Positions 33,231-39,213 of a stretch of DNA of 64,000 bases are shown piece by piece. The notes under the pieces were generated by a model. The model had not been told where the DNA came from. It saw nothing but the letters and a program-made list of their open reading frames with translations, and did not search any database. Source of the stretch: Candidatus Heimdallarchaeota archaeon (GTDB taxonomy: Archaea > Asgardarchaeota > Heimdallarchaeia > Heimdallarchaeales > Heimdallarchaeaceae); NCBI GenBank assembly GCA_021399345.1, contig JAAFKI010000051.1:16036-80035 (forward strand), in the 5' to 3' direction. Within the stretch, counting starts at the first letter, position 1. The number at the start of each line of letters is the position of its first letter. Made by a program: the position numbers and the translations under genes.

Positions 33231-34418
33231 CTATGTTCTTACTAAGGAATCAACTGTTTCCAGGAAAATTAGTATTTCATTCTCAGTATTGTAAAGATGA
33301 GTTGATATTCTTACTAAGTCATTGAATTTAAGCTCATACATATACAGATGAGAACACAAAGCCCCACTTCTTACTTGTATATTTTTCATATCATCTAGAA
33401 CCATAGCCAAATCGTGTGCTTCAATTTTTTCACTGCCAAATGACAAAATTGGTCCATATTCAGCTCCCTCAATTTTGTTTAACTTAATAGAAGGAATGCT
33501 TTCTAAACCAGCTCTTAGCTTAGAATGTAATTTTTTCTCATGCGCCTGAATCTTTGATAACCCAAAATTCGATAATAGTTCTAGACTATTAGTCATTGCA
33601 TTTATATTGGCAACATTAATTATCCCTGTTTCAAACTTCGAACCTGAAGAATTAAGGAGATAGGAATATTCTTCAAGTGCAATTATTGAACCTCCTCCAA
33701 CAATTAGAGGATCCATTTCATTATAGATTTCATTATTAGTAATCTGGAATGCTGTACCTGCAGGTCCTAAAGCACCCATGCATCCTGAAGATACAACTAT
33801 ATCTGGTGTTTCTTTATCAAACATAATCTCTTCATGGCCCACTGAATAACTAATATCTAGAATGAATGTGGCATCCACTTCTTTACAGATTTTAGCTATC
33901 TTATTCCATTCTCTCTTCACACCATTAGTAGCTGTTAAAGAAGAAAGAAGCACAATGTCTTTTGGAGAATGTATTGTTTCACTAATATTCTCAACAAGGT
34001 TTGTTTCATCTTCGATATTAAGATAATCAATCTTTGTACCAAAAGAATTATTAGCTTTTATTGCAGGAGCTAAAATAGAATGCTCCTCTAGAATACTAGT
34101 AACAACTCTTTTTTCACCTATATTCGGCATTGAATGAAAGACACTTGTTAGAACCGTTTCTCTTGATGGAAAAAATGAAATTTGGGCTGGTTCTACATTG
34201 AATATCCTCGAAAGTGATTGCCTATTTTTTTCCAGAAGTCGATTACTAGAAGAAATTTCACTGTGTACCCCCCTAACAGGTGCTCCTCCTCCGTTTTTGT
34301 AATATTCATGTATTTTTTTCATAGAAGAAACAGGAATTTTTCCAATTGTAGCTGAATCTAGATAAATTTGATCAGGTTTTAGGTTAAATTCAATTCCAAA
34401 TCTTGTAGTAATCGTCAT
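33231..34418 (-). CDS. Class V aminotransferase / SufS-like protein lacking the PLP lysine
   Basis: YLDSAT, GGG, KFETG, VRSGALCSH, STHLYNT; SSGCMG replaces SGHK; start 34418 or 34439. Confidence 0.85.
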   Translation of the reverse strand: MTITTRFGIEFNLKPDQIYLDSATIGKIPVSSMKKIHEYYKNGGGAPVRGVHSEISSSNRLLEKNRQSLSRIFNVEPAQISFFPSRETVLTSVFHSMPNIGEKRVVTSILEEHSILAPAIKANNSFGTKIDYLNIEDETNLVENISETIHSPKDIVLLSSLTATNGVKREWNKIAKICKEVDATFILDISYSVGHEEIMFDKETPDIVVSSGCMGALGPAGTAFQITNNEIYNEMDPLIVGGGSIIALEEYSYLLNSSGSKFETGIINVANINAMTNSLELLSNFGLSKIQAHEKKLHSKLRAGLESIPSIKLNKIEGAEYGPILSFGSEKIEAHDLAMVLDDMKNIQVRSGALCSHLYMYELKFNDLVRISTHLYNTENEILIFLETVDSLVRT

Positions 34419-34593
34419 GGTTCTGTTAGGTTTATTCATAGTAGATTTTAAAATCTTCCTTGCTATGAAATCAAAAAGTTTGAATACTAATAAGAACATA
34501 ATTAATTAGGGAAAATCTAGAGGATGATCGTAAGGCATTTGGTAAAGCATTAGCGATGCCAGAAAGAAGCAAGGTGACCTATGATTTTCTCTT

Positions 34594-35787
34594 TCATATT
34601 TCTTCCATTATTGATTCTAATGTTTCTAGAAAAGAATTGATGTCTTCTTTTGTGTTATAAAGATGAGTAGAGACTTGAACTAGTGATTCTCGCTTCAATT
34701 CATCCATAAAAAGATGAGAACATAATGCTCCACTTCTAACATAAATGTTAGTCAGATCTTCTAGAATAATTGCTATATCATGAGCATCAATATCTTCACT
34801 AAAGAAGGAAATAACAGGGCCATATGATAAACCATCTTTCTCAACAATATCTATCTTGTTAATATTCTTAAGGCCATCATAAAGGGTTTTCCTTAATTCT
34901 TGCTCATGTTTTTTGATTTTTTCAAAACCAACATCTGAGAGCAGTTGCAGACTATTTGCTAAACCGGAAATAGAGGCTATATTCAGTGATCCTGGCTCAT
35001 ATTTATTTGGAACTGATGCTAATCTATAGCCAGATTCATTTACGGAAACAACAGCCCCTCCACCTACTAAAACTGGGTTGAATTCTTTCTCTATTCCATC
35101 TGAAATGATTTGAAAAGCGGATCCATGAGGACCAAGAGCACCTATATCTCCAGATGAAATGATGATGTGTGGAGAAATCTTATCAAAATTATATGCTGCA
35201 TGACCTACCCCATTTGATATGTCTAAGATAAATAATAATTCATTGTCTATTGCTAATTGAGATAAACTTTTCCAATCTCTTTGAACTCCCATTCCTAGAG
35301 TTAGAGATGACAGAACGATTGCTTTTGTTTTTGTATCAATCTTTGCTTGAATGGAAGAAACTAAATCGATTTCTTCTTCTATTCCTGTAAAGTTTAGCTG
35401 CGTTCCACAGAATTTATTCAAATTCAAAAGTGGTGTTATTACTGAATGATCATCTAGAGAACTAGCAATAATTTCACTTTCTTTATCGAATCTTTGAGAA
35501 AAAAGTGCATTAAACATAGCGGTTTCTCTTGATGGTAGAAAAGAGACACGTGACCTGTCAACATAGAAGATATCTCCGATAGTTGAACGAGATTTCTCTA
35601 GTGTACGACTAGCATTGATTGCAATTTTATGTGTGCCCCTGCTAATCCCCCCTCCATGTTTGGAATAAAAATCACTCATGACTGATACTGAGGACTTAGG
35701 TAGTCTTCCTGCAGTTGCAGAATCTAGATAAATTTCGTTTTCATTAATGATGAAATCTATCCCAAAGTGATTTTTGACAGTCATCAA
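34594..35787 (-). CDS. Second SufS-like paralogue lacking the PLP lysine
   Basis: YLDSAT, RGTH, KYEPG, VRSGALCSH, STHLYNT; SSGDIG replaces SGHK. Confidence 0.85.
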   Translation of the reverse strand: MMTVKNHFGIDFIINENEIYLDSATAGRLPKSSVSVMSDFYSKHGGGISRGTHKIAINASRTLEKSRSTIGDIFYVDRSRVSFLPSRETAMFNALFSQRFDKESEIIASSLDDHSVITPLLNLNKFCGTQLNFTGIEEEIDLVSSIQAKIDTKTKAIVLSSLTLGMGVQRDWKSLSQLAIDNELLFILDISNGVGHAAYNFDKISPHIIISSGDIGALGPHGSAFQIISDGIEKEFNPVLVGGGAVVSVNESGYRLASVPNKYEPGSLNIASISGLANSLQLLSDVGFEKIKKHEQELRKTLYDGLKNINKIDIVEKDGLSYGPVISFFSEDIDAHDIAIILEDLTNIYVRSGALCSHLFMDELKRESLVQVSTHLYNTKEDINSFLETLESIMEEI

Positions 35788-35869
35788 TGAATTGATTGAA
35801 ATCAGATTGATTTAAACGTTTGTTTCCAAACACCATTTTTTTATATGTAATTCAAATTTCAAGCATGTT

Positions 35870-36325
35870 ATGTTAAATAATCTAGATAAATTGGCAATAA
35901 ATTTGGAAGAGAATATTAACAATTATTTGAATGTATTCAACGATTTACTGGACAACATATCTAATTTATCTAGTAGTAAAATTAATGATGTCCTCTGGAA
36001 ACTGAGGTCTGATTTAGAACTATTGATAATAGAATTTAAATTTGCTTTAGAGAAGGAAGATAAAACAGAGAGATGGCAATCTTCATTCAAAGAAGAACTT
36101 AAAGGGACAAGTTCAAAACAAAAAGCTATAACGATGTTGGAAAGATATAGGAAGAGCAATCAGGAAACCCAAACAATTTTTAAGAAGAAACCTGAACAGA
36201 GTTTCCGATATTTTTGGAAATTAAAAGAGACTATTTCCTCAATTCTTTCAGCATTTCCAGAGCAGAAAATTGAGTGGTCTAATGGTGAGTTGAAGAAGGT
36301 TTCTGAGGATGTTTTTGAAATTTGA
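35870..36325 (+). CDS. Hypothetical helical protein
   Basis: 151-aa ORF upstream of and co-oriented with the ARPC4-like gene. Confidence 0.6.
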   Translation: MLNNLDKLAINLEENINNYLNVFNDLLDNISNLSSSKINDVLWKLRSDLELLIIEFKFALEKEDKTERWQSSFKEELKGTSSKQKAITMLERYRKSNQETQTIFKKKPEQSFRYFWKLKETISSILSAFPEQKIEWSNGELKKVSEDVFEI

Positions 36326-36373
36326 TTACATCTAACAGCAAATATAAAACAGTAAAACACTTTGGTTACTTGT

Positions 36374-36862
36374 ATGAGTTCTCATTCACCTGAGTTTTTA
36401 GAAGATAAGGAAAAAATCAGGCAAGCTATGAAACTTGAAAGATACGTCTGCCCCCATAGAGAAATTAACTATCCTTGTGTAATCTGTAAAGATTGCAGCG
36501 ATATGGATTTAAAGCAATTTCCACTTAAAAATGGGTTTATCGAGAAAACTAGAAATTCCAGTTTGATTTCACTTATTTTTGAACTTAGAGATCCTTTCGA
36601 TGATATGTTACTCAAACGACTAAGTGTAGCACTTTATGAAGCTACAGGAATTGTTCAAAAGGAACCAGAACCAGGATTTTCCATTACATTTTATATATCT
36701 GAAGCATTACTAGAAAAAATATCTGAAATTGAGAAACTCATAGATTTTATAGCGGATTTCCAGCATAAATTCCTCTCTGAAACAATAGCTGCAAGAAGTG
36801 CTTTAAATAAATGGGAAAGATCAACAACAAAGCGGCTATTATGGGACATGAGTTTACAATAA
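36374..36862 (+). CDS. ARPC4 (Arp2/3 complex p20 subunit)-like protein
   Basis: Collinear matches to eukaryotic ARPC4 as recalled: IEKTRNSSLIS~IEGSINSVRVS, KEPEPGFSITFYIS~RKPVEGYDISFLIT, KLIDFIADF~KLVDFVIHF. Confidence 0.75.
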   Translation: MSSHSPEFLEDKEKIRQAMKLERYVCPHREINYPCVICKDCSDMDLKQFPLKNGFIEKTRNSSLISLIFELRDPFDDMLLKRLSVALYEATGIVQKEPEPGFSITFYISEALLEKISEIEKLIDFIADFQHKFLSETIAARSALNKWERSTTKRLLWDMSLQ

Positions 36863-36870
36863 AAAGAAGA

Positions 36871-38016
36871 TTAAGAAACACTCTTCCAGAATAATCCTAT
36901 TTTATCAGCGTGATTTCGAACTTCAAACATTTCTGTAGTAGAAACTCTTCTCTTAATCTCAGGAAATCTATCAGTTTGAAGAACAATATAATCGGGATGA
37001 TATTGGCCCATAATGTTTACAAGTGGTGTATTAAGATTCTCATTGATCCAGTCCAGAAGAGGAATAGAACAACACTTTGTGTGGTTTGGCATAACTAGGT
37101 GACGAATTATATACTCGCCTGATCCTCTGTCTTCAATCATTCTCATATTTCTTTGAAGCGCCTCCCAATATTTTGGTGCTTTGGAGTACTTGGTTGCACA
37201 TTCTTTGTTTGAATATTTCATATCTGGTAGCCAAATATCAAAAAGATCTGCAATCAGTTTCATGCTCATATCAGTAAGATACATGTTACTATTCCACAAC
37301 ATTGGGACATCAACTTGTGTATGTTTGAAAGATTCTAAAATCACATGTAAGTTTGGTGTAGGTTCTCCTCCAACAAAATTGATATTTCTCGCATTCTGTT
37401 TAACCAGAGTGAAATAATGTTGTGCAAGCTGAATGGCTGATGTCCCTCTCCCCTTAATTCTCTCAAACCCAAATTCGTGACTTATATCCCAGTTTTGACA
37501 AAACTGACAATCAATAGTACAGCCCAAAAAGAATATTGTACCGCTAGGGACAATAGGACTTTCTTCCCCCATATGAATGAAAGCTGAGCTAACATATGCC
37601 TTATCATCAACTCCACATTTTCCAACTTCTCCTTCATCACGGTTGGCTCTGCATCTATTCTCACAGAATTCACAGGAAGAAAGAACATCTTTAAAGATAG
37701 TTAGTTTCAGCTCTAGATAATTATTACTTGTGACGTCCTCAGCTTTGTACAGCTCTGCAATTTCTTTCTCAATCTTTTCAAGTGGAAGATGCTGTTTCTC
37801 TGCTATCCACTTCTTGAATTTTGGATGGTAGTGTTCATGAATATTCATTAATTCATCTTTATCTTTGTAACCATTAAAAGGAACATGAAATAATCGGGCT
37901 AGTTTGTAACGGGGTATACGTTTCCCCTGAAATATTTCTCTGTAATACACTAGACGATTTTCTAATTCAACTTGTTGCCAAACAGTCATTGTATCTCTTT
38001 TTGAAAGAGTCCACAT
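36871..38016 (-). CDS. PflX-like radical SAM protein
   Basis: CEFCENRCRANR, HMGEE, PSGTIFF.GCTIDCQFCQNWDIS, GGEPTP, IIRHLVMP, NIMGQYHP. Confidence 0.9.
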   Translation of the reverse strand: MWTLSKRDTMTVWQQVELENRLVYYREIFQGKRIPRYKLARLFHVPFNGYKDKDELMNIHEHYHPKFKKWIAEKQHLPLEKIEKEIAELYKAEDVTSNNYLELKLTIFKDVLSSCEFCENRCRANRDEGEVGKCGVDDKAYVSSAFIHMGEESPIVPSGTIFFLGCTIDCQFCQNWDISHEFGFERIKGRGTSAIQLAQHYFTLVKQNARNINFVGGEPTPNLHVILESFKHTQVDVPMLWNSNMYLTDMSMKLIADLFDIWLPDMKYSNKECATKYSKAPKYWEALQRNMRMIEDRGSGEYIIRHLVMPNHTKCCSIPLLDWINENLNTPLVNIMGQYHPDYIVLQTDRFPEIKRRVSTTEMFEVRNHADKIGLFWKSVS

Positions 38017-38172: not shown

Positions 38173-39213
38173 ATGAAATTAATGTCACAGTCTCCACTGC
38201 ACGAAGCTGAATATTACGATGTACTTGATGAAGAAAATAAAGTAATCCTATGTCGCTTATGCCCCATAGAATGTACTTTGCTAGTTGGAGAGATTGGTAA
38301 ATGTTCTTCGCGTATAAATCTTGAAGGGAAAATGTATTCTCTAACTTATGGATATACAGATATGAAGATAGATATGATTGAAAAACAACATGTTTTTCAT
38401 TTTCATCCAAATTCAAGAGCACAAACATTTTCTACTTACAATTGTAATCTTGATTGTGATTATTGTGTAATGCCTGATAAGATTGGGGTTGATCCAGCTC
38501 AAACTAGTGCAAAAAAACTAGCTCCTGATCAAGCTGCAATGTTTGGGATGGCATCAGGTTCTAAAGTTATGGCTTTTGGTGAAGCTGAACCACTAATATC
38601 TTTTGAATGGGTTCGTGATACAGCGATTCTTGCTCAGCAGAGAAATCTGAAAGTGTTATTGAGAACCAATGCATATTTCAATGAAGAACCTGTTAAGGAG
38701 ATTCTTGAGTATGTTGATGCGGTTATTATTGACATAAAGTCAGTTACTGATACCGGGTATCAACAAAAGTGTCATGCAGGTACTTTCAAAGAAATTAAGA
38801 AGATTATCAAGTTGATTTATGAAGAGGAAAAACTTCTCGAACTAAATTTCGTTATCCATGGAGCACTTGAGAATACTGAAGGACAAACTAGAGAACTAGC
38901 CGAATGGATAAAAGAAGAACTTTCAGTATCTGTTCCGCTACACTTAGATAGATTGCTCCCTGCTCATAGACTTAAAGAAGTACAACCTACAACTACAGAA
39001 TTATTAGAGAAATGTTATCAAATAGCTAAGGACGTAGGCTTAGAGTTTGTTTATTTAAACAATGTACCTGATCATGAAGCATCACATACTTATTGTCCAA
39101 AATGTGGAGAATTGCTTATTTATAGAGGAGCTTCAGCAACAGAAGTAAGGAGAATCTCTTTACAAGGAAATTGTAATAAATGTGAAACTAAGCTCAATAT
39201 AGTTTTCAAATAA
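38173..39213 (+). CDS. Divergent AmmeMemoRadiSam-type radical SAM paralogue
   Basis: CRLCPIEC, IEKQHVFHFHP, CNLDCDYC, TYCPKCG. Confidence 0.85.
   Translation: MKLMSQSPLHEAEYYDVLDEENKVILCRLCPIECTLLVGEIGKCSSRINLEGKMYSLTYGYTDMKIDMIEKQHVFHFHPNSRAQTFSTYNCNLDCDYCVMPDKIGVDPAQTSAKKLAPDQAAMFGMASGSKVMAFGEAEPLISFEWVRDTAILAQQRNLKVLLRTNAYFNEEPVKEILEYVDAVIIDIKSVTDTGYQQKCHAGTFKEIKKIIKLIYEEEKLLELNFVIHGALENTEGQTRELAEWIKEELSVSVPLHLDRLLPAHRLKEVQPTTTELLEKCYQIAKDVGLEFVYLNNVPDHEASHTYCPKCGELLIYRGASATEVRRISLQGNCNKCETKLNIVFK

Follow-up and report, generated by a model that had tools for sequence, protein, structure and literature searches.

RESULTS

Organization of the locus

The window analyzed here is a 64,000-nt stretch of contig JAAFKI010000051.1 from Candidatus Heimdallarchaeota archaeon, with ~33% G+C across its whole length. 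Within it, a gene for a helical-bundle protein (P0002) is followed on the same strand, after 48 nt, by a gene for an ARPC4-like protein (P0001; Table 1). An earlier note on this DNA had read both open reading frames (ORFs) at these places and had described the upstream one as helical; an ORF check and an AF2 model of P0002 (pLDDT 83.4), which shows a helical bundle and, at the C terminus, a small hairpin, agree with that description. The ARPC4-like ORF has an alternative in-frame start, a TTG at 36362, but its orthologues begin MS... at the ATG equivalent to 36374. Because of these orthologue starts and a TATA-like box ~29 nt upstream (36340 to 36349), we took the ATG as the start codon.

Table 1 Genes, coding segments, and sequence elements of the locus, in window positions (Asgard families are given by label, f1 and so on)
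Feature	Position	Strand	Basis or remark
Two tandem class-V aminotransferase (SufS/NifS-like) paralogues	33231-34499, 34594-35787	-	PF00266, each E about 1e-58
Palindrome TGTTTCCAAACA, then T-rich TATA-like box	35821-35846	+	Conserved across f1 loci, several genera
Upstream helical-bundle ORF, P0002, 151 aa	35870-36325	+	Conserved gene, no family match
BRE/TATA-like element TTACATCTAACAGCAAATATAAAA	36326-36349	+	Kept in most f1 loci while flanks diverged; putative promoter
ARPC4-like gene, P0001, 162 aa plus stop	36374-36862	+	PF05856 match, fold match, orthologue starts
Codons of the Cys4 cluster, C26-x8-C35-x2-C38-x2-C41	36449-36496	+	Probable metal (zinc) site, from conservation
Long C-terminal helix, residues ~119-158, break at 141-143	36728-36847	+	AF2 secondary structure
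Radical SAM gene	36871-38016	-	PF04055; convergent with ARPC4-like gene, syntenic across f1
Radical SAM gene	38173-39213	+	PF04055; ends in HVO_2753-like zinc-ribbon pocket

The same gene order recurs in Asgard family f1: a class-V aminotransferase-like gene on the minus strand, the helical ORF and the ARPC4-like gene on the plus strand, and a 381-aa radical SAM gene on the minus strand. One aminotransferase copy is divergently paired with the P0002 gene across f1, and between the two lies the TGTTTCCAAACA region, ~25 to 28 nt before the P0002 ATG at 35870; its palindrome is a candidate regulator site. A functional tie to the SufS-like and radical SAM neighbors was considered and dropped, since their synteny is confined to f1 and BLAST with them gave no match at the loci of more distant members of the family. 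The P0002 gene was detected in 25 of 30 f1 genomes, representing several genera, and adjoins the ARPC4-like gene wherever both were found there. This adjacency is a feature of f1 only and does not extend to all genomes in which both occur; ARPC4-like genes outside f1 mostly lack a P0002 neighbor and are flanked, for example, by carbamoyl-phosphate synthase or NADH dehydrogenase genes. No actin, profilin, or gelsolin gene was seen beside the ARPC4-like gene in the loci examined.

In most f1 loci, the motif TTACATCTAACAG(T/C)AA(A/G)TATAAA stands at a fixed 25 to 30 nt before the ARPC4-like ATG, and in several f1 species T-runs occur right after the stop codon of the upstream gene. Given the conserved TATA-like motif at a fixed distance, the ARPC4-like gene very probably has its own promoter. 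In this window the two genes are not separated by a T-run terminator, so that transcription may read through from P0002 in this genome. Of the two-gene unit proposed in the earlier note, what stands is the conserved neighborhood in f1; the unity of the pair is weakened by the promoter-like element between the genes and by the loss of adjacency outside f1.

The downstream gene encodes a member of the ARPC4 family

The predicted product of the downstream gene matched the ARPC4 profile PF05856 at 33.8 bits (E 3.3e-8; residues 55 to 156 on profile positions 62 to 165), above the Pfam gathering cutoff of 22.2 bits, and its meaningful matches in a sequence search of the PDB were ARPC4 chains only. 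An AF2 model built from 20 orthologues (alignment A1; pLDDT 79.5; pTM 0.75) shows a globular alpha/beta domain that leads into a long helix at the C terminus. When the model was searched with Foldseek, ARPC4 chains filled the best nine rows (E 6e-7 to 2e-5, TM ~0.63; 1tyq_F at E 6.4e-7), followed by ARPC2. Structural alignment with VIA gave the same order: ARPC4 chain F scored Z 13.1 (rmsd 3.2 Å over 134 residues), ARPC2 was second best at Z 8.7, and unrelated folds reached at most 4.8. After ARPC4 and ARPC2, the next VIA matches were dimeric type III secretion chaperones (Z 4 to 5). The VIA alignment places model residues 9 to 146 on chain residues 10 to 155, and collinearity with ARPC4 therefore spans nearly the whole chain. 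Profile and fold both match, as expected from the earlier description of a ~162-aa protein collinear with ARPC4 and including its C-terminal helix. We regard it as practically certain that the product is a true ARPC4 (p20-Arc) family member. Its close orthologues include those of Heimdallarchaeota AB_125 (88% identical) and Ca. Heimdallarchaeum endolithica (61%), names that put the source of the window in Heimdallarchaeaceae.

A profile search of 400 Asgard genomes recovered ARPC4-like proteins in 96, nearly always as a single copy. They are near universal in families f1 (27/30), f5 (21/22), and f14 (6/6), and missing from two actin-bearing families, f20 (0/135) and f7 (0/12). Because large actin-bearing Asgard families go without it, the ARPC4-like protein is not a general actin cofactor. 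Overall, the profile searches place the family in at least 16 Asgard families, with some members falling under the Pfam threshold. When 1.8 billion representative sequences were searched, ~25 more distant archaeal members appeared, with eukaryotic ARPC4 lower in the list.

In Odin-like small genomes, the ARPC4-like module sits within longer frames of 383 to 436 aa; across P0087 and genomes G300-G303, G002-G004, and G297-G299, such frames measure 370 to 436 aa. One fused protein, P0087 (383 aa), has an ATC_hydrolase/V4R-like domain at its N terminus (PF14196, 28.5 bits) and ends in a CxxC...H zinc-ribbon-like tail. Another fused form, P0095 (361 aa), begins with the ARPC4-like module and continues into a ~200-aa extension without a Pfam match. 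The Odin-type fusion to an ATC-hydrolase/V4R-like domain hints at a ligand-sensing role that is not purely cytoskeletal.

Four conserved cysteines replace a segment of eukaryotic ARPC4

Translation of the ARPC4-like ORF gives the motif C26-P-H28 ... C35-V-I-C38-K-D-C41, in the N-terminal loop, of moderate AF2 confidence (pLDDT 64 to 70), that connects the first helix to the first strand. The earlier note had singled out this motif as a Cys/His cluster added to the ARPC4 chain. All four cysteines are invariant in the 20 Heimdall orthologues of A1, whereas position 28 varies (H/Q/T/K/R/N/M), so that the site is Cys4 and not Cys/His. Widening the alignment to 24 diverse archaeal members leaves C26 and C41 invariant, with C35 and C38 present in at least 90%; nearly all archaeal members carry C-x7-9-(P)C-x2-C-x2-5-C, the third-to-fourth distance ranging from 2 to 5 residues. 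None of the four was present in the six eukaryotic ARPC4 sequences compared. The cluster is thus real, conserved, and foreign to eukaryotic ARPC4, as had been proposed, but the histidine drops out of it. Nor is it an addition: in a joint alignment, it shares columns with the eukaryotic segment NFPSQ..KPEVEV, with Pro34 common to both, indicating substitution within a collinear segment and not an insertion.

This pattern of conservation makes it likely that the four cysteines form a metal site, and the metal is probably zinc. Ferredoxin-type Fe-S motifs (CxxCxxC) have strict spacing, and the variable distance between the third and fourth cysteines fits a structural zinc better. There is precedent in the structural zinc site of horse liver alcohol dehydrogenase, C-x2-C-x2-C-x7-C.

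The C-terminal helix retains residues that contact actin in eukaryotes

The long C-terminal helix corresponds to the one through which ARPC4 pairs with ARPC2 and touches the mother filament. In the 2.7-Å branch junction of Schizosaccharomyces pombe, ARPC4 meets actin of the mother filament through three residues: R158 by salt bridges to D80 and E83, N154 by hydrogen bonds to E83 and T126, and R55 by pairing with E99 (PMC10918085). A HMMER alignment to S. pombe ARPC4 (3dwl_F) matched N145 of the ARPC4-like protein to N154, which puts R149 opposite R158, so that two of the three contacts were placed. The 20 Heimdall orthologues (A1) show no variation at either residue, and their columns hold N and R/K in all six eukaryotic sequences (A3). 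Among the 24 diverse archaeal members, N145 is kept in 15 and R149 in 16.

The motifs WDAMER and FDTF are present at matching places in the genome's actin on contig C123 (51717-52826), and we take them, by actin numbering, to contain D80, E83, and T126. In the second actin of the genome, two of these positions are occupied by G and M. Retention of the three residues in the organism's own actin does not discriminate between readings, since they are conserved for many reasons. On the side of the ARPC4-like protein, the kept contact residues are consistent with filament-side binding and are no proof of it. From sequence comparison, we judge that the protein may bind actin, at a little under an even chance.

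The genome has actins and a single ARPC4-like gene

The genome from which the window derives (3.27 Mb, 88.6% complete) has one ARPC4-like gene. Profiles for ARPC2, ARPC3, and ARPC5 (PF04045, PF04062, and PF04699) gave no match at E<=1 in this 88.6%-complete genome, a result to be read knowing that control genomes cannot validate these eukaryotic profiles. Since none of the three was found, the ARPC4-like protein probably does not belong to a seven-subunit Arp2/3 complex. Three actin-fold genes are present on other contigs, two for actins and one for an ARP-like protein.

The ARP-like protein (493 aa; G000:C125:57065-58543; L044:1066-2547, plus strand) has an N-terminal CxxC...CxxC zinc-ribbon-like extension. 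Its full-length orthologues were found in families f1 and f2 only, and judged by sequence it is a Heimdallarchaeaceae-restricted ARP. Codistribution of this protein with the ARPC4-like protein was considered and rejected, because with orthologues in f1 and f2 only the two do not track each other.

The upstream helical protein has its own distribution

P0002 has 25 homologues that are 33 to 89% identical to it, with W43, R46, D48, L49, E50, W69, Q70, G79, T80, W116, K119, and E120 invariant. The earlier note had put it forward as a candidate partner of the ARPC4-like protein, on the grounds that ARPC3 and ARPC5 are small helical subunits. Searches with Pfam (to E 10) and NCBIfam returned subthreshold noise only, with neither P21-Arc (PF04062) nor P16-Arc (PF04699) among the matches, and Foldseek with the P0002 model returned nothing at E<=1e-3. 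The best Foldseek row (E 0.46) would have made it a HEPN toxin, an identity dropped because the protein has no Rx4-6H motif. In a wide VIA search, the highest Z was 8.2, to bundles of the Not5/Vta1/BAG type, a score that does not rise above noise for helical proteins; ARPC3 and ARPC5 were not among the matches listed. Prediction of a complex of the ARPC4-like protein (A1), Zn, and P0002 (alignment A2) scored 0.00 in both runs, which is no evidence either way.

P0002 diverges faster than its neighbor. Identity to the Ca. H. endolithica proteins is 34% for P0002 versus 61% for the ARPC4-like protein, and for a pair apparently on one 467-kb contig the values are 47% versus 86%. Relatives of P0002 also occur in the sister family f7 (E about 1e-14; L038, 5177-5608, minus strand; L039, 5130-5558, plus strand; L040, 5235-5660, minus strand), in which no ARPC4-like gene was found in the 12 genomes. 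There the P0002 relative lies directly downstream of a GatD-like gene, with a GatE-like gene divergent from the pair (both identified by eye from N-terminal sequences). In f3, the P0002 relative and the ARPC4-like gene are on different contigs. Profile matches to P0002 in f14 (E 2e-5 to 9e-4) were set aside as compositional; the one locus checked (G119) falls inside a 548-aa Ser-rich coiled-coil protein. With no Pfam, NCBIfam, or significant fold match, relatives in f7 genomes that have no ARPC4-like gene, and separate contigs in f3, the assignment of P0002 as an ARPC3/ARPC5-like partner is not supported. It is probably a neighbor restricted to Heimdallarchaeaceae and not a dedicated subunit; that it is a dedicated partner of the ARPC4-like protein seems to us improbable.

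DISCUSSION

Our overall reading, which we consider evenly poised between right and wrong, is that the window encodes a stand-alone and probably zinc-stabilized ARPC4-family protein that possibly pairs with itself and binds actin filaments. In this proposal, the four cysteines would stiffen a loop by binding a structural metal, Zn(II) most likely; eukaryotic ARPC4 would hold the equivalent loop through other contacts. With no ARPC2 found, the long C-terminal helix would pair with a second copy of the ARPC4-like protein, and the resulting two-lobed unit would bind the side of an Asgard actin filament via the conserved Asn145/Arg149 face. The isolated eukaryotic ARPC2/ARPC4 dimer has micromolar affinity for filaments (PMC9894260); since that pair binds filaments alone, a self-paired archaeal version is a reasonable hypothesis. 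We rate self-pairing at slightly below an even chance.

Several parts of this proposal can be read differently. The least favorable to an actin role is that the ARPC4 fold here serves as a small dimeric alpha/beta adaptor or chaperone-like protein, which eukaryotes later recruited into Arp2/3. Such a role would accommodate the absence of ARPC4-like proteins from many actin-bearing Asgard families, the lack of linkage to actin, profilin, or gelsolin genes at any locus examined, the Odin-type fusions to an ATC-hydrolase/V4R-like domain and a zinc ribbon, and the place of dimeric type III secretion chaperones as next in the fold ranking. However, the chaperone matches score low and could stem from no more than a common arrangement, N145 and R149 are conserved in the lineage, and the organism's own actin keeps the partner residues. 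On balance, we hold a nonactin role to be unlikely, if still worth serious consideration. Less likely again is that the four cysteines carry an iron-sulfur cluster (e.g., [4Fe-4S]) or act as a redox switch, making the protein a redox- or cluster-dependent regulator. The arrangement C-P ... C-x2-C-x2-C does resemble a ferredoxin-type motif (CxxCxxC plus a remote Cys-Pro) in reverse, and in f1 two class-V aminotransferase (SufS-like) genes and a radical SAM gene flank the gene. That setting, however, is found in f1 only, with unrelated neighbors elsewhere; the third-to-fourth spacing of 2 to 5 in the wider family is unlike strict Fe-S motifs, and C-x2-C-x2-C-x7-C likewise serves alcohol dehydrogenase as its classical structural zinc site. 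We therefore consider an Fe-S or redox reading improbable and retain zinc as the preferred metal.

A role for P0002 would change the proposal in another way, by making the two proteins a two-subunit complex in which P0002 is an ARPC3/ARPC5-like subunit or supplies the missing helix partner in place of ARPC2. The genes share a strand, lie 48 nt apart with no T-run terminator between them in this window, and are adjacent in all f1 genomes with both, across several genera; this adjacency has been kept despite the faster divergence of P0002 (34 to 47% versus 61 to 86% identity). Against this, P0002 has no sequence match to P21-Arc or P16-Arc, its relatives occur in f7 without an ARPC4-like gene and on another contig in f3, outside f1 such a neighbor is lacking for most ARPC4-like genes, and a conserved TATA-like element, in some species with T-runs, separates the genes. 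A two-subunit complex thus appears to have only a small chance of being correct. The most far-reaching version combines several of these elements: the ARPC4-like protein would be an ancestral, self-pairing form of the ARPC2/ARPC4 clamp, the Cys4 site a metal or redox switch that controls binding to the side of actin, and P0002 a lineage-specific regulator in Heimdallarchaeaceae. We regard this combination as very improbable; if true, it would represent a minimal precursor of Arp2/3. The stand-alone, probably zinc-stabilized protein remains our preferred reading.

The gene family itself is already catalogued. "ARP2/3 complex subunit 4" of Asgard archaea is mentioned as a eukaryotic signature protein (PMC7444086), and a catalogue-matched ARPC4 cluster has been described (bioRxiv 10.64898/2026.10.28.762692). 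The window's gene belongs to this signature family, and nothing sets it apart from the other members. A literature search found no experimental study of any archaeal ARPC4-like protein and no mention of its cysteines; neither the Cys4 site across the family nor the breadth of at least 16 families was found described. The contribution made here is accordingly at the level of sequence and model, not of function: the whole family shares the cysteine site, which takes the place of a collinear segment in eukaryotes, the histidine is not part of it, and the supposed upstream partner is probably a lineage-restricted neighbor with its own distribution. ARPC4 and ARPC2 form the mother-filament-binding core of Arp2/3. 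Small and easily expressed, a lone archaeal ARPC4 with the actin-contacting Asn/Arg pair offers an entry to the origin of this seven-subunit machine, namely, to whether filament-side binding predated Arp2/3.

Among known relatives, the Odinarchaeial fused proteins (e.g., P0087, 383 aa) have the same ARPC4-like module and cysteine knuckle. In contrast to them, the window's protein is the bare module, without the ATC-hydrolase/V4R-like domain or the zinc-ribbon-like tail. ARPC2 (p34-Arc), the second-best fold match (Z 8.7), comprises two alpha/beta domains like that of ARPC4, with a helix at the C terminus; the ARPC4-like protein is half its size and has no sequence match to it. Eukaryotic ARPC4 (PF05856; chain F of 1K8K, 1TYQ, 2P9P, 3DWL, and 6W17) is the closest in build. 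The two differ in that identity is ~19 to 21%, that four cysteines stand in place of NFPSQ..KPEVEV, and that the conserved W147 and E148 of the archaeal protein have no eukaryotic counterpart. They are nevertheless of similar length (162 versus ~168 aa) and have in common the alpha/beta domain and the long helix after it, with collinearity over residues 9 to 146, as well as the N61-S62 motif, Pro34, and the Asn/Arg pair of the helix that contacts the mother filament.
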